A program made the position numbers and the translations under genes. Shown here piece after piece: positions 16,017 to 51,324 of a DNA stretch of 64,000 nucleotides; position 1 is the first letter of the stretch; each line of letters begins with the position of its first letter. The notes below the pieces were generated by a model. That model made no database searches. It was given only the letters and a program-made list of their open reading frames with translations, and had not been told where the DNA came from. Source of the stretch: an uncultured Eubacteriales bacterium (GTDB lineage: Bacteria > Bacillota > Clostridia > Oscillospirales > CAG-272); NCBI GenBank assembly GCA_900544985.1, contig UQXK01000001.1:13459-77458 (forward strand), written 5' to 3'.

Positions 16017-16535
16017 TTAAAGTTTGGTGAGCAATTCGGCATTGCTATGTTTTGTCATTCCTTTGCTCATCATGGCAAGGAAATCATCTTTTGAAAAGTC
16101 GGACAGTCGGAATACTTCTTCGGGTTTCATTCCGAGCTGCTTGCTGATCTCGTCTACCGATTTGTTTTCGTCCATCAATCTTTTAACGATGGCTTTCATT
16201 GGTTCGAGAAGATGAGTTCCGCGAGCGCGGTTATGCGTTACAGTTCCGTATATATCTTCCGACTTGTCTTTGTGATCTACGATTACCACGGGAACTTTAC
16301 CGTTTAACATAGAAAGAAGAGGTTCTTCTCCCGATACCGTCCATCTGTGGAATCCATCTATGATCGTATAATCAGGACGTACAACAATTGGTAGAGTCCA
16401 TCCATTTGTTAATATTGATTGAGCAAGCAGTTTGAGATTTTCTTTGCTAACCTTGTTTGGGTTGTAATCATTAGGGTGTAACAGATTTCTATCAACCCAT
16501 TGTAATGATCCTAAGGGCGCGAATATATCAGCCAT
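16017..16535 (-). CDS. ParB-N (sulfiredoxin-fold) domain protein, IbrB-like
   Basis: 172 aa. LLHPNDYNPNKVSKENLKLLAQSILTNGWTLPIVVRPDYTIIDGFHRW is a ParB/Srx N-terminal domain signature. It overlaps the IbrA-like gene by 8 nt. Confidence 0.8.
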   Translation of the reverse strand: MADIFAPLGSLQWVDRNLLHPNDYNPNKVSKENLKLLAQSILTNGWTLPIVVRPDYTIIDGFHRWTVSGEEPLLSMLNGKVPVVIVDHKDKSEDIYGTVTHNRARGTHLLEPMKAIVKRLMDENKSVDEISKQLGMKPEEVFRLSDFSKDDFLAMMSKGMTKHSNAELLTKL

Positions 16536-17682
16536 TTATCTCGCCTCCTTTCTGGAAGCGTTTGCTGTCTTCTACATAATGGCAGAAGACATCTTGAAAA
16601 ACGGCGCGCAATGTTCTTGTCTTGGGATCTCCCGCAAGCAGACCATCATAAAGTTTTCTATAATCACGTGGTCGTGCCATGCCCTCAATTTTTATAAGGG
16701 CTCTTCGATATTGTTCAGCAACATGCTTTTGATGATCCGTATGAAAATACTTACCGGGATTCTTGATGAGCATATCGATAAGCTCGGATTTGTAGTCTCT
16801 ATCGTCGCGCTTTTCCAATGACTGACGGTTGCGTGTGCTACGTCCGAACATTTCGCTATCCCAATATAAAGCGGCAAGGTAGGCGTTTGGCTCTCTCCTT
16901 ATTACGCGTTCCATAAGGTCAGGATAGTATTCGTTCATTCGTACAAGACACGCAGCCGTGTCAGAAGAAAAGAATTGTGACACACGGAGTTGTCCTTTTC
17001 CAATTCCTGCTTGCCACATATAAAGATAAATACTCGGTATCTCTATATGTTCTTCTTTGAGATATAACCATACATCGCTTGTCTTCCAGTCATAGATTGG
17101 ATAGATCTGTCTGTTCCCCGTGATGCCTTTGGCGCCCATATTTAAGGCCGCCATATATTGAAGACGCTGTATGGATTCAGCCGCTCTCACGCCTGTCATC
17201 ATTATCCCGCCTTTTGTAACTCTCGGCAGGAACGCTTGATAGTTATCTGCACGAGGTTTTAGAAGCGGGTGTGATCTCACAGCGAATGGCGGCGGTTGTC
17301 TTACCCAAACGTCGCTTTTGGTACTATCCCAACAGATAAATGATTCATCTGACGTCAGCTGGTTAAAGCAGTTGAAGTGTCGGACTTCAAGACAGTACCA
17401 ATCAAATTTTGTGCCGGCAAGAAGAAATTTCTTACGCCATGTTTTCACAGTTTCTTCGATGCAGGGAAATATAGCCTCTTCATCAATGAATAATACTGTG
17501 AGCTGAGAAGCGTTTATTTCGCCAGAGCACAGTAGGGAATAGACAAGCTGCGCAATGCACAAACTGTCTTTTCCTCCGGAGAATGACATATATACAGGCA
17601 AGCCGTTTGCAAATACATTTTTGATTCGCTTTTTTGCCGCTGTAACGACATCCATATCAGATTTAACGCGCTTTACAGCCAT
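16528..17682 (-). CDS. PAPS-reductase-family PP-loop protein, IbrA-like (long C-terminal extension)
   Basis: 384 aa with the PP-loop motif YMSFSGGKDSLCIAQLV. The architecture, with a ~150-aa helical C-terminal extension, resembles IbrA-type proteins. Confidence 0.85.
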   Translation of the reverse strand: MAVKRVKSDMDVVTAAKKRIKNVFANGLPVYMSFSGGKDSLCIAQLVYSLLCSGEINASQLTVLFIDEEAIFPCIEETVKTWRKKFLLAGTKFDWYCLEVRHFNCFNQLTSDESFICWDSTKSDVWVRQPPPFAVRSHPLLKPRADNYQAFLPRVTKGGIMMTGVRAAESIQRLQYMAALNMGAKGITGNRQIYPIYDWKTSDVWLYLKEEHIEIPSIYLYMWQAGIGKGQLRVSQFFSSDTAACLVRMNEYYPDLMERVIRREPNAYLAALYWDSEMFGRSTRNRQSLEKRDDRDYKSELIDMLIKNPGKYFHTDHQKHVAEQYRRALIKIEGMARPRDYRKLYDGLLAGDPKTRTLRAVFQDVFCHYVEDSKRFQKGGEING

Positions 17683-18320
17683 ATTTTTTCACCGCATTTC
17701 GGACAGACAACAAAACTTCTGCCGGAATTTTCCTCTCTGCGGTTGTTGTCAACATTACTATCGGCAATATACTGCGATGCTTGCGGTGTGTACTGTTGTT
17801 CGTAAATAGCTTGCTGTGTATGATTGTTAGGCGCTTCGTATTTCATGCTTGCGTTTCTAATATTTTCAGCTTCTTCCTCATCTATCTTGCCATATTCCGA
17901 AAGTACTTCGGTCATATCGCTGTTATCCATGAGAAGAGATTTAAGAAAATCGTCGTCATAACCAGGTATATCCAAGTCTTCGCTTAATTCTGCTAAAATT
18001 TCATCAAATGCTGATATATTGTCAACGCCAAGATTAAAGATTCGATTGTCAGCGATCATAAGTTTTTTCTTATCATTTTCGCTTAAATCTGTTATCTTGT
18101 TGCAAAACGCCTCGGTCCATCCCAAAGCCATCATTGCCATATACATACCATTACCGGTAAGGATGACATTGTTTTCATCTATGGTTAAAGGTTTTACCTG
18201 TTTGAATTTTTGTAAAGAACGCTTATATTCTTTGATTTGCGCTTCGGGGTGTGTGCGAACGTTCTTTTCTGATGGTTTTAGGTCTGCAAGTTTGAATTTT
18301 TCAATTTTCAATTTCGTCAC
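17673..18320 (-). CDS. ParB-N nuclease-like domain protein with C-terminal zinc ribbon
   Basis: 215 aa. FKLADLKPSEKNVRTHPEAQIKEYKRSLQKFKQVKPLTIDENNVILTGNGMYMA is a ParB-N signature. It has an acidic linker and ends in VVCPKCGEKIWL. Confidence 0.75.
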   Translation of the reverse strand: MTKLKIEKFKLADLKPSEKNVRTHPEAQIKEYKRSLQKFKQVKPLTIDENNVILTGNGMYMAMMALGWTEAFCNKITDLSENDKKKLMIADNRIFNLGVDNISAFDEILAELSEDLDIPGYDDDFLKSLLMDNSDMTEVLSEYGKIDEEEAENIRNASMKYEAPNNHTQQAIYEQQYTPQASQYIADSNVDNNRREENSGRSFVVCPKCGEKIWL

Positions 18321-19102
18321 CTCCTTTCTTCAAGGAAGCGGCGAGCGCTTTCTATTTTTATCGCGGCATTCTCAACGATAGACGGGTCAATATTATAGAC
18401 TTCGCTCCATCCGTTTTCTATACTTCCACACCATTGCCTTGCAGGCCACGGGTGCGTGCCGCATAAATATCCGTTCTTCCAATCATAAATAGGGGGAACA
18501 GGAATATTGTTGTAGTGAATATATGCAAGGATATGCTCGTGTTTCCAATCAGCAAGAGGGCTATATCGTAGAACACCCTTGCCGTCTGTATACTCATTAC
18601 CTTTCCCGGTGTAATTTCCGTCTGCGTGTCTACGACCAAGAATTAAAACATCAAGATTTTGTTTCTTATAGTAAATGCGCTGTGCGGTATGCTGTACTAT
18701 TGAAAACCACCTGGCAGCTTTGACGCTGTTTTTGGGAAATAGCATATCGAGATGACGGGAGAGCCAGTCAAGCCCAAGCTCAATGCGAACAATCTCGCAT
18801 TCTTTCGGCTTATTTAGTTCAATCCACGTCATAAACGCGGGATATTCGAAATCGCATACCCCGATCATACTTTGATGAATCCCTGCAATTTCGCAAAGTT
18901 TTCCAAGGACTATGCTGTCCTTGCCACCGCTCCAAGCGTACGCGGCGTTTTTGTCTTTAACAAAATTGGTTATTTGCGAAATTGTTTCAACAGCCAACTC
19001 ATCTATTTCGGATTTGCTGACAGTTTCCTCTATATGTTTGATTGCTTCGAGCCAGTCATCGTTTTTGATAGACTGTTTTCTTCCAAGCGGTTTTATTGGC
19101 AT
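18317..19102 (-). CDS. PAPS-reductase-family PP-loop protein (second paralog)
   Basis: 261 aa with the PP-loop AYAWSGGKDSIVLGKLCE. Its ATG lies inside the last codons of the transporter gene (10-nt overlap), with AAGGAGG 7 nt upstream. Confidence 0.8.
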   Translation of the reverse strand: MPIKPLGRKQSIKNDDWLEAIKHIEETVSKSEIDELAVETISQITNFVKDKNAAYAWSGGKDSIVLGKLCEIAGIHQSMIGVCDFEYPAFMTWIELNKPKECEIVRIELGLDWLSRHLDMLFPKNSVKAARWFSIVQHTAQRIYYKKQNLDVLILGRRHADGNYTGKGNEYTDGKGVLRYSPLADWKHEHILAYIHYNNIPVPPIYDWKNGYLCGTHPWPARQWCGSIENGWSEVYNIDPSIVENAAIKIESARRFLEERR

Positions 19103-20469
19103 TTCATCGCCTCCTTTTTAGAGACAATGAGTGCTACAATCCCGCTGATAAATACAGTTGCGAGACTTCCAATCGTTTTGTAAAGGGCAATTCCTAAAAT
19201 GTTGCCATATGCAAAAATCGGTAATCCGATAATTGCAGATGCCAAAATTCCGTAAAAAACACCGTTTGCCGATATTCTTTTCCCGAGAAGCGTCATAACG
19301 GTAGGGAGTAATGTTGTTGCTCTGATTGTGCAATAAAACAGAAACAGATGCGTAACCGTAAGACCTGGAATATTCGCTATGCCGATGCCGAACAATAACA
19401 AAATTAGCATACTTCCTTTTGCGACTTTGATGTTTCCTCCAAAATCACTTGTAAGAGAAGCTACTGCGCAAAGATTACTGTCAACAGTAGAAAGAAGTCC
19501 CGAAATAACCATGAACAGAAAGGGAAGCATCACCCATTTTGGAAACAGATTTGTAATCAATTCAAAATTAACCATTCCCGTGTCTGTTGCAACATATCCG
19601 GAACCTGCGGCAATGTAGCCGAGAATTCCCATAGAGAGCGGGGCGATAGCAAACATCAACGCGCCGAGCACAAATGCTTTTCCTATTTTATTTTTTTTGA
19701 TAGAGAAAGCACGTTGCCAAAAACATTGATCTCCAAAAGGACCTGCAATCAATCCAATGGCTGTTGGAATACCGAATGACAACAGAACGGAAATGCCGTT
19801 CCCGTCAAAAAGACTCTTAAATTCTCCACTAATACCGCCCAATCCGTTTATAAGATTTGAAACACCGCCATCTACCGATAATGCCCACGGTACGAATACC
19901 GCGCAGGCGGCAAGCATGAGAATCATTTGAAGCGCGTCCGTTATAACAGAGGCTTTTATCCCCGAAAATTGAGAGTAGGAAAAGGCAATGACCGCGAGAA
20001 TTATTGTCATTACCCAAAATGGAATGCCTGTAATTGATGAAAGAATCTTACCGCCAGCGAGCAGTTGTACGCCCGTCGATAAGATCGAGAGTAGGGAAAG
20101 CTGACCGAGATATGCGTATCTTACTTTTTCGGATTTGTATTGAGTTGCCATAAAGTTCGAAAGTGTAATGCCCTCGGGCATTCGCTCCCTTATCCTTTTG
20201 GCAAAAGGCACGAATAGGATTAGACACGCCACGTTCGGTATAAGGAACCAAAACAGTCCCGGAATACCGTTTGAATATGCCTTTTCCGCCGATGTGAATA
20301 GTGCCGGTGCCCAAATCCAAGTAGCCGCAATGCTCATAGCCGCCTGCCACATTCCAAGTTTTCTGTTAGCTACGTGAAAGTTATCGGCGTCTTTACTTTT
20401 TCGCGAAAATAAAAAAGTTGCGCCGAGCATTATCGCCGTATATACGACGAGTACAATGATACCATACAT
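19093..20469 (-). CDS. Sodium:solute symporter (SSF) family transporter
   Basis: 458 aa with a polytopic membrane profile throughout. The N-terminus LGATFLFSRKSKDADNFHVANRKLGMWQAAMSIAATWIWAPALF is typical of SSF transporters. AAAGGAGGAG lies 6 nt before the ATG. Confidence 0.85.
   Translation of the reverse strand: MYGIIVLVVYTAIMLGATFLFSRKSKDADNFHVANRKLGMWQAAMSIAATWIWAPALFTSAEKAYSNGIPGLFWFLIPNVACLILFVPFAKRIRERMPEGITLSNFMATQYKSEKVRYAYLGQLSLLSILSTGVQLLAGGKILSSITGIPFWVMTIILAVIAFSYSQFSGIKASVITDALQMILMLAACAVFVPWALSVDGGVSNLINGLGGISGEFKSLFDGNGISVLLSFGIPTAIGLIAGPFGDQCFWQRAFSIKKNKIGKAFVLGALMFAIAPLSMGILGYIAAGSGYVATDTGMVNFELITNLFPKWVMLPFLFMVISGLLSTVDSNLCAVASLTSDFGGNIKVAKGSMLILLLFGIGIANIPGLTVTHLFLFYCTIRATTLLPTVMTLLGKRISANGVFYGILASAIIGLPIFAYGNILGIALYKTIGSLATVFISGIVALIVSKKEAMKCQ
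20313..20333. repeat. 21-nt exact direct repeat, copy inside the transporter CDS
   Basis: AAATCCAAGTAGCCGCAATGC on the plus strand. The same 21-mer occurs at 20525-20545. Confidence 0.95.
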
Positions 20470-23630: not shown

Positions 23631-24136
23631 TTGCAACAATCTCCTTTCAGCAATTCGGGGGTGTCGTAAATATTGCCGATGACTTCTGCCACTTCAAGAG
23701 GTTCATCATCTTGATGATAATTCCACCACAATTCCCAAATAGAGATGAAATTATCATTAAAGCAGAAATAAGCGTTGTTCTGGAACGGTATTTTGCTATC
23801 AAGTAAATCGTAATCTATCTGCTGCGTTGTTGCGATTCCAAACGCTCCGCACTCTTGAACGATTTTTCCACGCATATCGAAAAGCTCTACTATATCCCCC
23901 TCGAAAATCTTCTTACCGTTCTTGTCGGTCAAGCCTGTGTACTGACTGATTGTTTTATAATCAATTTCTATACTCTTGATGCCATTTGTGTTAGTCATTT
24001 CAGTAGGTAAATTTTCAAAGCGTTCATCGTATAACCGTGTTACTAATCCGTACACCCAATCGCCATTTTTATAGTTTGTTATGTAAAATCCCTTGTCGCG
24101 ATTTATTGCTTTTCCTCTGAACAAAATTTCTCTCAT
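23627..24136 (-). CDS. YopX family protein
   Basis: MREILFRGKAI...DKNGKKIFEGDIVE...VIGNIYDTPELLK is the YopX signature. ATGA overlap with the upstream gene. Confidence 0.8.
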   Translation of the reverse strand: MREILFRGKAINRDKGFYITNYKNGDWVYGLVTRLYDERFENLPTEMTNTNGIKSIEIDYKTISQYTGLTDKNGKKIFEGDIVELFDMRGKIVQECGAFGIATTQQIDYDLLDSKIPFQNNAYFCFNDNFISIWELWWNYHQDDEPLEVAEVIGNIYDTPELLKGDCCK

Positions 24137-25076
24137 TGTTTCTCCTCCATTAACATCTTCCACCTGAATTTTCGATTTGTTGGCACTTTACTCTCATCTT
24201 CGGCTCGAAAGCGGATGTCAAAGTCATGAACAGTATGCCCGTCCGGATGAAATGTCACGGGACTGTCATTGTCCCACTTTAAGAGCAAAGCCCACAACTC
24301 GGGATAGTTTCTGCGGAGTAGTCGGAGCCGGTCGATTCCTTGATTATGACAAAACCAACACCCGCCACGGGCTGATGTGGTGTAAATCGGGCTGAGAAGG
24401 TTATTCTCTTCGCACCATTTGCGACAATACGCTTCATCCCAACCGATCATCACAAGAGGGAGCATTTTGCCGGGAACAGAATGTCGTTTGATTCGTTCCG
24501 GCTCATCTGCGGCGATACCGAGATATTGAACAGTATTTATCTTTGCCCCCTGTTCAATGGGGCAAGAGGAAAACTCTCTTTTTGAGTTGTGTGTTGCACC
24601 AAATGCCGCGAATGATTGGAAATCCGTATATATTGGTCGAGGGCACTCGCTTTGAGCCTGCTTTGGCAGAACGGCATTGTCCTTCTCGGAAAACCGTATC
24701 GAATCCAATATCGCTCTCTGTTTGAGTTTTGAGTTGCAATGTGGGTGCCACATTGTTGGGAATCCTTCGATTGCTCTCTCTCTCTCCGTTTGGGCACATG
24801 GTAAAAAATTTTTTCGTATGTAAGTTTTTCGCCGTTTTTCATGGCACAAATATGTTCAACCTCAACACCATATCTCTCCTTGATGATCTTGTCGGCTTTC
24901 TTTTTGAACTCTACCATGGGCGGTAAATCTGCCGGAATACTATCGGTCGCCCACACCTCGGCGTGTACGATACGGTCGAGAGGCAGTCCGAGAAGCCGGA
25001 TAGCTTCAAGGCAAGCGAGGCTATCTTTGCCGTATGATAAAGATAGTACATATTGTGTGTTTGAATCACTTGTCAT
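24133..25076 (-). pseudogene. PAPS-reductase-family PP-loop protein (third paralog), split by a frameshift inside a (GA)6 tract
   Basis: The N-terminal part is ORF 24537..25076, with the PP-loop LSLSYGKDSLACLEAI up to ..YHVPKRRER. The C-terminal part is ORF 24133..24849, in the -1 frame, from ..RERAIEGFPTMWHPHCNSKLK to the end. The two frames meet at GGAGAGAGAGAGAGC. Removing one GA unit joins them into one ~313-aa protein. Confidence 0.75.
24774..24786. repeat. Dinucleotide tract (CT)6C on the plus strand, (GA)6G in the gene sense
   Basis: Plus strand 24773-24788 reads gCTCTCTCTCTCTCcg. It sits exactly at the frame change of the PAPS-reductase gene. Confidence 0.95.
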
Positions 25077-25695
25077 TTTCTTCTCCCTTAAACTCTTTGT
25101 AGTCTACTTCATTCGGTGTGTCAATGTTGATGATTATAGCCTTTGAGAATGCTCTTTCTGCCACTTCATTGAGATAACTTTCTAACGTAGCTTCGCTCTT
25201 CTTGTTGGCGTTATACTGCTCGATTGTTATTTTGCCTTGTTCAAGCGCGACTTCATTGAAGCGCGGGTCATATCCAAACTTCTCACAGAGCGCCTCATCG
25301 TTATGGTCGTAGTAATCTTCCTTAAATTCCTCACATTCGTCATAATAGCGTTCGTTGTAGCACGCATATTCTCCGACGCTGACACTTCCAATCGACGCAA
25401 GCCATCTTCCATAGTCCTCGTACACAACATCGCTATCTACCATAGCCACAATTGGCAATGTCGGATTTTCTGCGACTATCCTCAAAAGAGTTTCGGTGTT
25501 TCTTTCAGTATTAAGTTCCATTTCAGTTTCCTCCTGTGATTCAAATTTTTTTCCGCCACAATGGTAAAATGCGTCATCTGGTTGCCAGTCTTCTATAACG
25601 ATGTCGTTGGTGAGGTCGCACATATATCCACCTTCTCCCAAGTACACGCAATGCTCGCATTCATAGCAATCTTTTCTTTCGGGCGGCATCTTCAT
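25066..25695 (-). CDS. Hypothetical protein (N-terminal Cys cluster, acidic)
   Basis: 209 aa with CYECEHCVYLGEGGYMCD at the N-terminus. It is coupled to its neighbours by overlaps at both ends. Confidence 0.5.
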   Translation of the reverse strand: MKMPPERKDCYECEHCVYLGEGGYMCDLTNDIVIEDWQPDDAFYHCGGKKFESQEETEMELNTERNTETLLRIVAENPTLPIVAMVDSDVVYEDYGRWLASIGSVSVGEYACYNERYYDECEEFKEDYYDHNDEALCEKFGYDPRFNEVALEQGKITIEQYNANKKSEATLESYLNEVAERAFSKAIIINIDTPNEVDYKEFKGEENDK

Positions 25696-28801: not shown

Positions 28802-28853
28802 CGTTTCTCCTTTTGTCCGTGCGGGTGGATATCCCCCCCGCCGAGCAGATTTG

Positions 28854-30420: not shown

Positions 30421-30837
30421 TTAGATTGTTGCAATTTGCAAGATGATCTCCGTGTGGGGATTATCTGAATAAAATTTTCTAACTTGTGCATCAACGATAC
30501 ACTTGTCGTCGTCGTAGGCAACGCCGTTGAGTGCATCTGCTATCAGTTTGCCTATATTGTCAAAGTCTGGTTTGACTATCGGTCGTATTTCACCGTTCTG
30601 CATTTTCTGCTGAACGGTTTTAGATTTGCTTTTGGGAATAGGGAAGTATGCCAAAACACGCATATCCACATATGTACCTTTGGGAAAACGGTATGCTCCA
30701 CAGGCTTCTTTGTACGCCCACGCGACTAATGCTTCTTGTGTTCGTGTCTGTTCTTGGGTGTACTTTGCTCCTGTTTTTCGATTATAGCCTGTGCGCTGCC
30801 ATCCTTTTGGATCGCCGGGAACGGTGAAGCGTATCAT
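30421..30837 (-). CDS. rusA: RusA-family Holliday junction resolvase
   Basis: 138 aa. MIRFTVPGDPKGWQRTG...KPDFDNIGKLIADALNGVAYDDDKCIVDAQVRKFY is the RusA signature. Confidence 0.85.
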   Translation of the reverse strand: MIRFTVPGDPKGWQRTGYNRKTGAKYTQEQTRTQEALVAWAYKEACGAYRFPKGTYVDMRVLAYFPIPKSKSKTVQQKMQNGEIRPIVKPDFDNIGKLIADALNGVAYDDDKCIVDAQVRKFYSDNPHTEIILQIATI

Positions 30838-31487
30838 TTCTTATCCTCCAAAAGATTTGCTTTTTTAGGTGTATCAAGCTCTTTATATGCCTGCCCTGAG
30901 ATAAGTTCCCATTTTTTATCTTCTTTCCTGCGGATATTTTGCACTTCCAATAGGAAAGAGTCTGTTTCTGGGTAGAGTTGGCGGACTTTTCTTATCGAAG
31001 AAGACAGCGCCGCGGGGAGCGCCGCTGTTTGCATCTCTCTCTCATATGTGGGTTTGTAAAGGTCCATAAACGCCACTTTATCCATGCCGTCTTTATTGCC
31101 TGCATAACTGCCTCGGTGGAGTTCCCAAAGGGTATGCCATCCGATAGTTTCCACGACACGTTCGATAAGTGGAGGAAAAGTCGGGCGTCCCCAAGAGGAT
31201 TCTCCCGTTGCATGCATAACATCCATTACTGCCATCCATGCAATATCGGGCGGTATCAGTTCGGGATGGAGTATTTCAGCCATGGATTCTCTGATTTCCG
31301 CTATGCTTGGTGGCCATTTGTTGCTCGCTATGTGCTTTGTAACCGCAAGCTCAACAGCGCTTTTGTCATCGTCTTTGAAGAATGCGTACCAAGCTGTTAC
31401 CATTCCTGGTATGCTTTCCTCTTTGAAGCGATCGGGATATGACATCACAATAACCGTTACAATGTCGAGCAATTCATTCTTTGTCAT
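30834..31487 (-). CDS. Putative replicative-helicase loader (G40P-loader-like)
   Basis: MTKNELLDIVTVIVMSYPDRFKEE..MVTAWYAFFKDDDKSAVELAVTKHIASNKWPPSIAEIRE resembles the loader/inhibitor of G40P family. It lies next to the replisome organizer gene. Confidence 0.55.
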   Translation of the reverse strand: MTKNELLDIVTVIVMSYPDRFKEESIPGMVTAWYAFFKDDDKSAVELAVTKHIASNKWPPSIAEIRESMAEILHPELIPPDIAWMAVMDVMHATGESSWGRPTFPPLIERVVETIGWHTLWELHRGSYAGNKDGMDKVAFMDLYKPTYEREMQTAALPAALSSSIRKVRQLYPETDSFLLEVQNIRRKEDKKWELISGQAYKELDTPKKANLLEDKK

Positions 31488-32628
31488 CTCCACACTCCTC
31501 TCGCATTTTCGCAAGAACTCCGAGCGCCCCTGTCAAGGGAAGTTCCTTTGAATCTGTCGAAGTTCGGTTGTCATACTTGTGTTCGAGAATTTTTGAGAAA
31601 TTCGAGGGCTTCATCATCCAGTCGAAATCAGCCACCCAATTCCTGTCATTTTGACCTTTAAGAAAAGATGACGCTTGCGCGATTTGGAATAATTCCTTAA
31701 AAGTACCAAGTGAGTTGTATGTTCGCCATCGTGCTGCTACTGCCTTTCGTCTGTTTCCGTCGATAGCTTTGATTTTTGGATAAGAGACGCAGATTTCGTG
31801 ATATAAATCTCTGATTTTTGAAAACGGGCATTGCAACTCTGACTGCGAAGCAGATAGAGTAGTAATATCTTCCTCTTCATCTCTAATATCTATATCTCTA
31901 TTATCTTTATATCTATTATCTGGGTGGAAATTTTCCACCTCTATTTCCACCTTATTTCCACTTGTTTGAGTAGAATGATTGTGAATTTGTTCCAGCAGTC
32001 CGCTGTGTACTTTTGCATGACAGCTACGACATAAAATATATAGGTCATCTACGTCATTGCTGTAACCATTTCCATGATGAATACAAAGATTTTCTTGACT
32101 GCCACAATTTTCACAAACGCCTTGCGCAAGATCAAAAGCTTTCATACCATTGCCACCATATCGTTTTTCATCGACATATTGTATCTCACCAGATGGGAGT
32201 AACAGCGTTTCGCGATTGAGACGTTTGCAAGTGCCGAGTTTAGGAGCTCGTATTTGCTGCTGATTTCGCTTTTGAATTGCCCAATTTGTTTCGCTCCCAA
32301 CAAGAGTTTGATGATCTGTGAGGACAAGGACACCATCCTTATCCTCGTAAATAAGACCAAAAGATTTGTAGAGATTAAGAGCAATTCGGATAGTGTCCGT
32401 CGAAAACCATTTGCAGTCTCGTTGTATTTTTTCTACGTCGTACGGGATTATTATTTCTCCTATTTGGCGAGAAAGTTTTCCATCGGTGTTTATGGTTTTC
32501 AAGCAAAGCATTTGATACAATACAACATAATTCGCGCCATTGGGTTGACTCATGAAGTAGTCGATTGTATCAGAAGTCATAAATGACTCTTTTAGCTTCA
32601 TCCAGTAATATCTTTTTCCTGTTGCCAT
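31474..32628 (-). CDS. Phage replisome organizer with internal HNH motif
   Basis: The N-terminus YYWMKLKESFMTSDTIDYFMSQPNGANYVVLYQMLCLKTINTDGKL is the replisome-organizer N-domain pattern. The central CENCGSQENLCIHHGNGYSNDVDDLYILCRSCHAKVH is an HNH motif. The C-terminal part is DnaD-like. Confidence 0.7.
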   Translation of the reverse strand: MATGKRYYWMKLKESFMTSDTIDYFMSQPNGANYVVLYQMLCLKTINTDGKLSRQIGEIIIPYDVEKIQRDCKWFSTDTIRIALNLYKSFGLIYEDKDGVLVLTDHQTLVGSETNWAIQKRNQQQIRAPKLGTCKRLNRETLLLPSGEIQYVDEKRYGGNGMKAFDLAQGVCENCGSQENLCIHHGNGYSNDVDDLYILCRSCHAKVHSGLLEQIHNHSTQTSGNKVEIEVENFHPDNRYKDNRDIDIRDEEEDITTLSASQSELQCPFSKIRDLYHEICVSYPKIKAIDGNRRKAVAARWRTYNSLGTFKELFQIAQASSFLKGQNDRNWVADFDWMMKPSNFSKILEHKYDNRTSTDSKELPLTGALGVLAKMREECGDDKE

Positions 32629-51175: not shown

Positions 51176-51324
51176 TATTTTATTGAGATAATTTTATATC
51201 TGCTACGACAAAAATATGAAAGCATACAGGAAAAAGCGCGAAAAGCTGCACGCGCTTTTTACGGGGGGGGGAGATGAGGTTCGAACATTTTCCCCGAGAA
51301 ATGCTTTCATGAATATTCATAAAC

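Follow-up and report, generated by a model that had tools for sequence, protein, structure and literature searches.

How a gene can be carried in two overlapping pieces, and whether its product is nonetheless made whole, are the questions raised by a locus on the minus strand of the 64-kb window, the whole stretch of DNA analysed here. The gene is best explained as belonging to a Clostridia prophage and encoding a PP-loop ('PAPS-reductase-like') enzyme, and its two open reading frames (ORFs) overlap across a (GA)6 tract. A sequence-only reading of the same DNA had noted this arrangement and offered an ON/OFF switch, a fresh inactivating mutation or an assembly error as explanations. From comparison with relatives, the gene appears instead to be a three-position switch: the length of the repeat would pick one of three motif cassettes, and ribosomes would regain the frame of the C-terminal domain by slipping -1 or -2 at a downstream U-run, a reading that we hold with a probability of roughly 0.55. 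The split involves the following features.

25076..24133, minus strand: whole gene, comprising two overlapping ORFs.
24537..25076, minus strand: N-terminal ORF ('N frame'), 179 aa, ..YHVPKRREREQSKDS..; PP-loop domain (SLSYGKDS).
24133..24849, minus strand: C-terminal ORF ('C frame'), -1 frame, ..TERERAIEGFPTMWHPHCNSKLK...
24775..24786, minus strand: (GA)6 simple-sequence repeat, the proposed frame selector, with length variants in relatives.

The two ORFs both pass through (GA)6, which is read as RERE in the N frame and as ERER in the C frame, and all three frames are stop-free there; the string GGAGAGAGAGAGAGC occupies 24773-24787, as previously reported except that its end had been placed at 24788. 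The N-terminal ORF stops at a TAA (24537-24539), 34 nt past the start of the U-run described below, and the conserved C-domain (GAKINTVQYLGIAADE... CxxxC ... GGCWFCHNQ ...) begins at 24549 within the C-frame ORF. Because the ORFs overlap by 313 nt (24537-24849), a frame change anywhere in that interval would fuse both, and the window sequence alone cannot place the split 'exactly at' the GA tract, as had been claimed; it is the relatives, in which length varies at the tract, that locate it there. The prediction that loss of one GA unit fuses the halves agrees with an in-silico (GA)5 allele, which yields a 313-aa ORF reading ..KRRERAIEGFP.., and addition of 4 nt does so too, an in-silico (GA)8 giving 315 aa.

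The PP-loop motif lies near the N-terminus (residues 12-19; superfamily pattern SGGxDS) and is invariant in homologs. This motif, a match of PHROG 424 to the C part (E=4.9e-29) and the name phosphoadenosine-phosphosulfate reductase given by NCBI to homolog P0055 are all that speaks for the 'PAPS reductase' label of the sequence-only reading, and Pfam does not bear it out: neither half nor the fused protein matches PF01507 (PAPS_reduct) at the curated threshold, and there is no Pfam match even at E<=1. PHROG 2302 matches the N part (E=3e-5). The window's two other 'PAPS reductase' paralogs (16528-17682 and 18317-19102) do match PF01507; they are too distant to inform on the split gene, whose fused product retrieved no paralog when compared by phmmer with every ORF of the window. 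The CysH-type C-terminal motif ECGLH is absent from the translated sequence, the C-domain having CRKWC and GGCWFCHNQ instead, and a PDB sequence search returned no match for the split gene. As for a Rossmann-like PP-loop ATPase fold, an AF2 model of P0001 is confident at residues 1-92 and 184-320, and the best Foldseek matches, all weak (E ~2e-3, TM ~0.3), are the NcsA/TtuA [4Fe-4S] tRNA thiolases, MnmA, GMP synthase and QueC. The neighbours of the family are methyltransferases, ParB-like genes and SNF2 genes, and the family therefore probably acts in DNA modification or anti-restriction.

Variation among relatives identifies the tract as the place where length actually changes. Locus L249, encoding P0127, shares 97.3% DNA identity with the window gene, and the sole indel in the gene is the loss of one GA, so that the predicted fused allele (313 aa, with KRRERAIEGFP) exists in nature; relative to the window, L253 lacks 6 nt within the tract and L001 has 16 nt more. 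Loci L012 and L068 differ by one GA unit. The junction peptides of N-domains at least 94% identical fit tract lengths that cover all three frames – (GA)3 in P0124 (177 aa), (GA)4 in P0141 (172 aa), (GA)5 in P0127, (GA)6 in P0122 and P0123 as in the window, (GA)7 in P0142 and P0140, and (GA)9 in P0129 – with lengths 3, 5 and 6 confirmed in DNA and the others assigned by junction peptide. The proposal of a length-variable repeat is thus borne out, and among relatives the same site holds (GA)4.5-17 or poly-G (G7-11). By these sequence comparisons, repeat polymorphism and all three frame states are established in nature. Alternative-frame states are common: of the 115 distinct N-terminal ORFs in public data, at least 76 have a tail of the f1 or f2 type. 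Straight-through reading is found in 27 of 39 distinct multi-frame loci, frequencies that are biased because locus retrieval favoured full-length matches.

The (GA)6 split allele itself recurs in L002 and L003, and its exact 179-aa product is encoded on three contigs (NCBI, ENA); its presence in independent assemblies means that it is not a one-off assembly error. A more distant relative, L250, has 83% DNA identity to the window gene and the same (GA)6 without an indel, with dN/dS of 0.094 in the N-domain and 0.067 in the C-domain. Judged by this divergence, the split state is not decaying, contrary to the suggestion of a fresh inactivating mutation; among the relatives the tract is neither invariant nor accompanied by further decay. 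The split is kept, with no further indel or stop, in lineages up to 17% diverged in DNA, which speaks against a simple ON/OFF switch.

Downstream of the tract lie three 70-nt units, each with the family-invariant motif GFPx(5-8)CxxxLK and each in a different frame. Neither these units nor the U-run and hairpin that follow them formed part of the sequence-only reading.

24721..24765, minus strand: unit U1, GFPTMWHPHCNSKLK, in the C frame (frame 2 relative to the ATG).
24651..24695, minus strand: unit U2, GFPRRTMPFCQSRLK, in the N frame (frame 0), decoded in the (GA)6 state of the window.
24581..24625, minus strand: unit U3, GFPIIRGIWCNTQLK, in frame 1, the most canonical copy.

The N-terminal ORF has U2 in frame and U1 and U3 out of frame, and the U3 frame is closed by a TGA at 24554-24556. 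The tract-length classes correspond to products of 313-317 aa (U1), 177-183 aa (U2) and 172-176 aa (U3 in frame). Detection of the units was by three-frame translation; Tandem Repeats Finder (24000-25200) reported only a 7-nt repeat, the units being too diverged in DNA for it. The positional ortholog of the single motif in short-form homologs is U3, whose own-frame conservation is 100% in both L250 and L253.

Several patterns of substitution establish, from sequence comparison, that purifying selection acts on each unit in its own frame. In an 11-sequence alignment built independently of the motif, the signal from third-position substitutions passes f0 -> f1 -> f2 -> f0 along the N-domain and U1, U2, U3 and the C-domain. 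Codon differences in U3 are synonymous at 54% in its own frame versus 12% and 4% in the other two, and indels within U3 are multiples of three. The L004 clade, which has no mutable tract after the array, shows clear own-frame purifying selection on U2 and U3. Over the ~200 nt between repeat and U-run, 20 of 30 loci keep all three frames stop-free, and in the remaining ten the open frames are exactly those bearing a unit; control regions of equal length contain ~7 alternative-frame stops. A diversity-generating retroelement was considered as the source of the units and rejected, since they differ at all base types and by indels and there is no template/variable repeat pair; the hairpin likewise does not fit such an element, because its loop is long and it is positioned after the U-run.

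The array is followed by two further elements.

24569..24574, minus strand: G-UUUU-C run, a putative slippery site, read AGU UUU CCU in the N frame and GAG UUU UCC in the C frame.
24545..24563, minus strand, extendable to 24543-24565: hairpin GCCCC-AUUGAACAG-GGGGC, with a 5-bp stem starting 5 nt past the U-run.

All 33 distinct relatives compared have the TTTT unchanged, which may in part reflect coding constraint, since the run also encodes a conserved Val-Phe in the U3 frame and Phe-Ser in the C frame. The slippery context in the window is only a U_UUU tetramer (GAG AGU UUU C), without a full X_XXY_YYZ heptamer, and in AGU UUU C only tRNA-Phe could re-pair perfectly; a canonical heptamer, G_GGU_UUU, is present in the L004 clade, where it lies in the f1 frame. 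The spacer between U-run and hairpin is 5 nt in 32 of 33 sequences. In a hand-extracted set, every one of 165 stem cells pairs (164 Watson-Crick and one G:U), with G:C/C:G swaps at stem pairs 1 and 5 in two sequences each, and a model-based alignment of 33 distinct sequences gives pairing in 100% of 163 stem cells, the middle pair being CG18/UA10/GC4/AU1. The covariation score was reached by none of 500 shuffles; the z-score of the single-sequence fold is weak (-1.5). The resulting covariance model has one match in the 64-kb window (24542-24579, minus strand, E=1.3e-9) and, among the loci scanned, matches multi-frame loci only; no Rfam 15 family reaches its gathering score anywhere in the window, nor does any match 24100-25100 at E<=1. 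An intrinsic terminator was rejected as an identity for the hairpin, because its U-run lies ahead of the stem and, on the opposite strand, no T-run follows.

Like the open frames and the hairpin covariation, the joint occurrence of all the parts is established at the level of sequence, here by a survey of homologs. Among 46 distinct long forms, 34 have the repeat, 36 out-of-frame units, 36 an in-phase TTTT and 33 the hairpin; for 145 distinct short forms the corresponding numbers are 5, 0, 3 and 1. The complete module of repeat, multi-frame units, U-run and hairpin is present in ~36 distinct relatives and in none of the 145 single-motif relatives, all of which are single N-motif-C polypeptides. 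Two to five stops across the array close the C frame of L175, L174 and L093, so that a full-length product requires a shift at or after the U-run; the units of L175 and L174 are in f1 and f2 only. L165, a 'fixed' relative with U3 in frame with the C-domain, has lost the signals, having neither repeat nor hairpin, which counts in favour of the three-position switch. A scan of metagenome contigs, which informed the family survey only, found no close relative, the nearest match having 63% identity.

We propose that these parts act together as follows. The stop-free hypermutable repeat – (GA)n in this gene and, in other lineages, poly-G of 7-11 – would change length by slipped-strand mispairing, and its length would set the frame across the array, with (GA)5 and 8 selecting U1, (GA)3, 6 and 9 selecting U2, and (GA)4 and 7 selecting U3. 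The C-domain would be held in one fixed frame, with G-UUUU-C and the conserved hairpin after the array as the point of return, where tRNA-Phe would re-pair with the C-frame UUU after slipping back by 1 nt (from the U2 frame) or by 2 nt (from the U3 frame), and the G ahead of the U-run would block further slippage. With (GA)6, as in the window, the predicted product of a -1 shift at AGU-UUU-C is a protein of 314 aa (...TTQKESF|SSCPIEQGAK...), for which the expected tryptic junction peptide is ESFSSCPIEQGAK; for (GA)4 and (GA)7 alleles the -2 route predicts VFSSCPIEQGAK. That the U-run and hairpin cause ribosomal frameshifting we infer from their layout and covariation, and that the cassettes change enzyme specificity is speculation. 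For -2 frameshifting we know of no documented bacterial case; the precedent known to us is arteriviral and requires a protein trans-activator. Two other routes through the array were discarded: translational bypassing from one of the units' repeated GGA codons to another would fail to regain the C frame, and three successive +1 shifts yielding a three-motif protein would call for slippery or stimulatory features that the unit junctions do not share.

As a counterpoint to this model, fast DNA switching alone could preserve both halves. Pure phase variation at the DNA level, which we regard as unlikely but worth serious attention, would have only (GA)5 and (GA)8, with U1 in frame, make the enzyme and all other classes be OFF and truncated; U2 and U3 would persist through further indels or recombination that move units, and the hairpin would serve some other role. 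Repeat polymorphism is observed, 27 of the 39 multi-frame loci read straight through, and other indels have brought U2 (L166) or U3 (L165) into frame with both domains; in L164, the 3' arm of the hairpin contains another G7 tract, which could be a second mutational switch. However, such switching does not account for the stop-free alternative frames, nor for why a fixed U-run, a 5-nt spacer and a covarying hairpin occur only where there are multi-frame units; L175 and L174 lack any straight path, and in the L004 clade U2 and U3 are under own-frame selection without a mutable tract. That the split is instead a recent inactivating mutation or a sequencing or assembly error, as the frame broken at the repeat might suggest from the window alone, has a negligible chance of being right, given the same allele in several independent assemblies and its retention, free of further lesions, where the DNA has diverged by 17% and each half has a dN/dS below 0.1.

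The remaining alternatives dispense with recoding or move it to transcription. The truncated N-terminal protein of the U2 and U3 states might be self-sufficient, or the C-domain might be made from an internal start and associate with it; N-terminal ORFs ending just past the array are very common in public data, and an ATG within U1 (..PTMWHPHC..) is preceded by GAAGGA and used by gene callers (P0126). This ATG is not conserved, L253 having GFPNKQHLHC at that place, and we have rejected it as a start for the C-domain; between U-run and C-domain the window has no canonical C-frame start codon, the 145 single-motif homologs each form one chain, and the hairpin covariation has no explanation, all of which makes either version quite improbable. 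We give only a slim chance to slippage of RNA polymerase on the repeat, chiefly on poly-G of 8-11, as a source of transcripts in all frames instead of or besides heritable switching. Elongation-phase slippage on dinucleotide (GA)n tracts is, to our knowledge, not established, heritable length variants are directly observed, and ribosomes would still have to regain the C-domain frame. Long poly-G does stand at the equivalent position in many lineages, and the paramyxovirus P gene, in which G insertion opens all three frames, is a precedent (PMC5009743).

If the three-position switch is correct, it represents a new logic of programmed variation, combining cassette choice by frame with translational return, and unites simple-sequence-repeat (SSR) phase variation with ribosomal frameshifting, which are usually studied apart; a gut prophage could swap three enzyme variants without recombination. 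The site would be the first in bacteria or phages, as far as we know, to converge -1 and -2 shifts on one frame, and the GFPx(5-8)CxxxLK loop would stand out as what probably determines specificity in an uncharacterised family of phage enzymes. In gut prophages of Oscillospiraceae and other Clostridia, 'split' or 'truncated' PP-loop enzyme genes number in the hundreds; these would probably be functional states and not pseudogenes, which would affect annotation pipelines, and many genes annotated as 'frameshifted' would be working alleles. Literature searches found no description of the architecture of repeat, multi-frame cassettes and return site, and we put at about even odds the claim that three motif versions in three frames, heritable choice by a repeat and a 'frame-convergent' recoding site make up a previously undescribed form of diversification.

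Several known systems share features with the locus. Bacterial -1 cassettes – dnaX, IS transposases and the phage tail chaperone G/GT – make two products at a fixed ratio from one genotype, and share with this locus the 0/-1 overlapping ORFs, slippery run, 5-6 nt spacer and stem-loop, whereas here the upstream repeat, in its heritable state, would decide whether a shift is needed. In Type I R-M hsdS shufflons and other specificity-cassette switches, too, one version of the segment that sets the specificity of a modification enzyme is chosen reversibly, but by site-specific recombination or inversion of DNA cassettes; at this locus the reading frame would do the choosing, without DNA rearrangement. 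A parallel to the repeat is found in SSR contingency loci and phasevarions such as the Mycoplasma bovis Type III gene mod1, where an in-ORF hypermutable (AG)n likewise shifts the frame of a nucleic-acid-modifying enzyme and a second slippage site, an A5T motif giving compensatory -1 frameshifting, partly rescues out-of-frame states (bioRxiv 10.64898/2026.04.01.715767). Unlike mod1, this phage gene has in each frame its own homologous copy of the catalytic-core motif, each under purifying selection, and a downstream rescue site with a covarying hairpin that would take ribosomes from two frames.

Among viruses of eukaryotes, the paramyxovirus P/V/W(D) genes resemble the locus in that slippage at a G-run opens three frames past a shared N-terminal part, with ~300 nt translated in all three frames in bovine PIV3 (PMC5009743); that slippage is transcriptional and leads to unrelated C-termini with no return to a common frame, whereas the three frames of this locus hold paralogous cassettes, with a common C-domain after them. 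In herpes simplex virus thymidine kinase, too, a homopolymer indel (the G7 'savior' indel) and low-level compensatory ribosomal frameshifting yield some functional enzyme (PMC5009743), but as an adventitious drug escape that lacks alternative cassettes and a dedicated signal downstream. The slippery sequence of arterivirus nsp2 (G_GUU_UUU), at which -2/-1 programmed frameshifting occurs (PMC4937337, PMC7939443), is almost identical to that considered here (G GUU UUC/U) and gives both shifts through tRNA-Phe re-pairing. There, one incoming frame leads to two outgoing frames under stimulation by a protein on a C-rich motif; at this bacterial site, two incoming frames would converge on one, with a putative hairpin stimulator 5 nt downstream.

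The prophage PP-loop gene (25076..24133, minus strand) is divided between two overlapping reading frames, with the following features, all on the minus strand.

25076 (ATG) to 24537, minus strand: N-terminal ORF, 179 aa (N frame), PP-loop motif SLSYGKDS at start; reads ..YHVPKRREREQSKDS..
24849..24133, minus strand: second ORF, -1 frame (C frame), with the conserved Cys-rich C-domain; reads ..TERERAIEGFPTMWHPHCNSKLK..
24775-24786, minus strand: (GA)6 tract, inside GGAGAGAGAGAGAGC (24773-24787)
24765, minus strand: GFP codon start of unit U1, GFPTMWHPHCNSKLK, C frame
24695, minus strand: GFP codon start of unit U2, GFPRRTMPFCQSRLK, N frame
24625, minus strand: GFP codon start of unit U3, GFPIIRGIWCNTQLK, third frame
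24569-24574, minus strand: G-UUUU-C, the U-run
24559-24563 and 24545-24549, minus strand: arms of the hairpin stem GCCCC/GGGGC
24537-24539, minus strand: stop of the 179-aa ORF

ORF translation of the window confirmed the split across the GA tract and the -1 position of the C frame that the sequence-only reading had described; both ORFs do traverse the shared string, which ends at 24787 and not at 24788, the only coordinate error. In silico, (GA)5 gives a 313-aa ORF (..KRRERAIEGFP..) and (GA)8 one of 315 aa, in line with the fusion that had been predicted for removal of one GA unit or addition of 4 nt. The ORFs overlap by 313 nt, so the lesion cannot be placed at the tract from the window alone.

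The predicted fused allele occurs naturally as P0127 (313 aa, again ..KRRERAIEGFP..), encoded by locus L249, which shares 97.3% DNA identity with the window and has a single indel in the gene, the loss of one GA. The exact 179-aa product is found on three public contigs, and the clusters of this product and of the C-ORF include P0122 (179 aa), P0123 (179 aa, diverged), P0124 (177 aa) and P0127; the N-terminal variant ANDTILADL is common to fused P0127 and split P0122. Relative to the window the tract is 6 nt shorter in L253 (encoding P0124) and 16 nt longer in L001, and (GA)6 is also present in L002 and L250. Further relatives, found by searching with the N-terminal ORF and having N-domains at least 94% identical, include P0141 (172 aa), which enters the third frame as KRRE/SNRRIP in agreement with the product predicted for (GA)4, the third-frame, (GA)7-like P0142 and P0140, and P0129 (181 aa, (GA)9-like). 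In another lineage, the near-identical L012 and L068 are one GA unit apart with the frame flipped. Tails of the f1 or f2 type are carried by at least 76 of the 115 distinct N-terminal ORFs found in public databases, and frequencies of the frame states are biased because locus retrieval favoured full-length matches. This comparison of tract length and frame across relatives, a check that had been proposed, shows at the sequence level that the repeat varies in length, that its length class sets which unit is in the N-domain frame, and that three frame states all exist in nature.

Directly after the tract lies the array of U1, U2 and U3, with GFP codon starts spaced exactly 70 nt apart, each encoding the family's invariant motif, GFPx(5-8)CxxxLK. 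In intact homologs (310-380 aa) a single unit serves as the motif, the rest being read as an out-of-frame 'linker', and the unit used differs among them (U1 in P0001 and P0004, U2 in P0011, U3 in P0006). AF2 predicts both domains of P0001 confidently and gives pLDDT <50 at residues 93-120 and 130-183, which correspond to the repeat and out-of-frame units.

From repeat to U-run in L012, L077, L093, L174 and L175, the alternative frames each have their own last N-domain segment (K)LTYExxFY, linker and motif, and the alternative cassettes in these several lineages are ~50 aa rather than the 15-aa motif alone. A second GGTTTTC lies inside U2 (24689-24694; Y-G-F-P is TAC GGT TTT CCG), with no hairpin after it. 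Compared with L079, L015 has one more A in the A-run within EKLTYEK and lacks an A after the G9 tract (GGGGGGGGGATT versus GGGGGGGGGAATT); both differences combined place U1 and U2 in one frame, and homopolymer sequencing error is possible in L015, an older assembly.

When 11 nucleotide sequences from a single clade were aligned with no use of the motif, most substitutions fell in codon phase f0 for the N-domain and U1, f1 for U2, f2 for U3, and f0 once more for the C-domain. Synonymous changes account for 54% of differing U3 codon pairs in its own frame versus 12% and 4% in the others, the codon-pair set, unlike the clade alignment, being partly ascertained through the motif pattern; indels inside U3 are multiples of three. 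Between repeat and U-run (~200 nt) all three frames are stop-free in 20 of 30 loci, and in the other 10 the open frames are exactly those carrying a unit; same-length control stretches have ~7 alternative-frame stops. By these substitution and stop-codon measures, every unit is shown to be selected in its own frame.

All multi-frame loci contain [G]TTTT[C/T], which the C frame decodes as xxG UUU UCN, and in 32 of 33 distinct sequences a 5-nt spacer separates this run from a G+C-rich stem of 5 bp whose loop measures 6-12 nt. The stem is paired throughout a hand-extracted set that was itself selected by a stem requirement (164 Watson-Crick cells and one G:U), with G:C/C:G swaps at pairs 1 and 5 in 2 sequences each; in the model-based alignment the middle pair varies among C:G (18), U:A (10), G:C (4) and A:U (1). 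The observed covariation score was reached by 0 of 500 shuffles, the paired fraction falls to 35-63% in slid controls, and covariation falls on the third position of a Gly codon and on position 1 of a Pro/Ser/Thr/Ala codon. A covariance-model search, the less biased check, gave a single match in the window (24542-24579, minus strand, E=1.3e-9) and, among 100 sources, matches confined to multi-frame loci; an Rfam search found no family matching the element. The window hairpin belongs to the minimum-free-energy fold, with a single-sequence z-score of only -1.5. The slippery context in the window is minimal and TTTT also encodes conserved residues; the site in the L004 clade is the canonical G_GGU_UUU.

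The survey drew 244 loci from collections of viruses, metagenomes and genomes; their hosts belong to the gut Clostridia, chiefly Oscillospiraceae. Short forms have one in-frame motif; long-form repeats are (GA)4.5-17 or G7-11, and in long forms lacking out-of-frame units two motifs are in frame and there is neither repeat nor hairpin.

Features of the distinct sequences compared (145 short and 46 long forms)
Simple repeat: short forms 5/145, long forms 34/46
Motif unit(s) outside the C frame: short forms 0/145, long forms 36/46
In-phase TTTT upstream of the C-domain: short forms 3/145, long forms 36/46
TTTT and hairpin: short forms 1/145, long forms 33/46
N- and C-domains mutually out of frame: short forms 0/145, long forms 4/46

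The near-identical viral contigs L045/L046 and L004/L005 are 1 nt apart at or after the C-domain start (gap 302 vs 303), a difference that throws the N- and C-domains out of frame; sequencing error is possible. In L164 (~2020-2035; P0002), the closest relative whose layout differs, one G7 precedes the array and a second makes up the hairpin's 3' arm, where the window has AG5; this second tract alters U-run/C-domain phase and may be a second mutational switch. The diverged L016 (~1560-1600) and L241 (equivalent position) both read ..GTT CGG GGG TAA GAA ACT TAC.., where the N-domain frame meets TAA just after five Gs and the homologous sequence resumes in the +1 frame as GKKLTY... Either a conserved site for a +1 shift, of GGG_UAA type, or a short G-run prone to mutation may lie here, and a full-length product would take two frame changes.

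The sequence-only reading had allowed for a fresh inactivating mutation or an assembly error. Both, and a pseudogene, are excluded by L250, which at 83.3% DNA identity to the window (167 substitutions) retains the same (GA)6, its gene free of indels and both halves free of stops; dN/dS between the two is 0.094 (dS 0.49) for the N-domain and 0.067 (dS 1.2) for the C-domain. Rapid DNA switching alone could keep both halves intact. In the recoding mechanism that we propose, U2-frame ribosomes would read xGU UUU C, with tRNA-Phe slipping -1 onto the C-frame UUU, and U3-frame ribosomes would read GUU UUC, from which tRNA-Phe would reach the same UUU by a -2 slip. The C frame would act as a sink because the preceding G is expected to disfavour more slippage, and the hairpin, 5-6 nt 3' of the putative A-site codon, would have the spacing typical of frameshift stimulators. 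In the (GA)6 state of the window, a -1 shift would yield a 314-aa protein (..TTQKESF/SSCPIEQGAK..). The C frame across the array is closed by 2-5 stops in L175, L174 and L093, which have no straight-through product, and L165, without a repeat and with U3 in the C-domain frame, has lost the hairpin. These closed frames, the hairpin loss and the f1/f2 tails lend the recoding model further support.

The protein has a PP-loop motif and matches PHROG 424/2302 ('PAPS reductase'), with weak structural matches to TtuA/NcsA/MnmA/QueC-type PP-loop enzymes; it is not matched by Pfam PF01507 and lacks the CysH ECGLH motif. Neighbours in the prophage block are a C5 methylase, an N6/N4 methylase, a ParB-like protein, an SNF2 helicase, two PF01507 paralogs and an SSF-type transporter, and a nucleic-acid modification role is plausible.

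16528-17682, 18317-19102 and 19093-20469, minus strand, inside the prophage: two other PP-loop proteins matching Pfam PF01507, with a sodium:solute-symporter-family protein (PF00474) between them

Neither PF01507 paralog has the multi-frame motif architecture. The short gap that separates the ParB-like gene (stop about 28854) from the SNF2 helicase gene contains an intergenic G7 (28833-28839, minus strand), ~30 nt upstream of the helicase gene's AAGGAG ribosome-binding site and ATG (about 28800); this G7 could be a second length-variable tract of the same module. A (GA)5 (31034-31043, minus strand) is read in frame as ..TYEREMQ.. within a G39P-like gene (ORF 30834..31514, minus strand), and, outside the block of phage replication and modification genes, an intergenic G9 (51263-51271, plus strand) directly follows a terminator-like hairpin (GCGCG..CGCGC TTTTT).

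Modification genes under SSR phase variation are well known. Our literature search found no description of a three-frame cassette architecture with return to a common frame. None of the following systems pairs three-frame homologous cassettes with return to a shared downstream frame: frameshifted constructs of M. bovis mod1 (AG)n are reported to be partially restored through -1 shifting at an A5T motif (bioRxiv 10.64898/2026.04.01.715767, 2026 preprint), paramyxovirus P genes reach all three frames through G insertion and in HSV TK a G7 indel occurs together with compensatory frameshifting (both PMC5009743), and arteriviruses use -2/-1 frameshifting at G_GUU_UUU (PMC4937337, PMC7939443).
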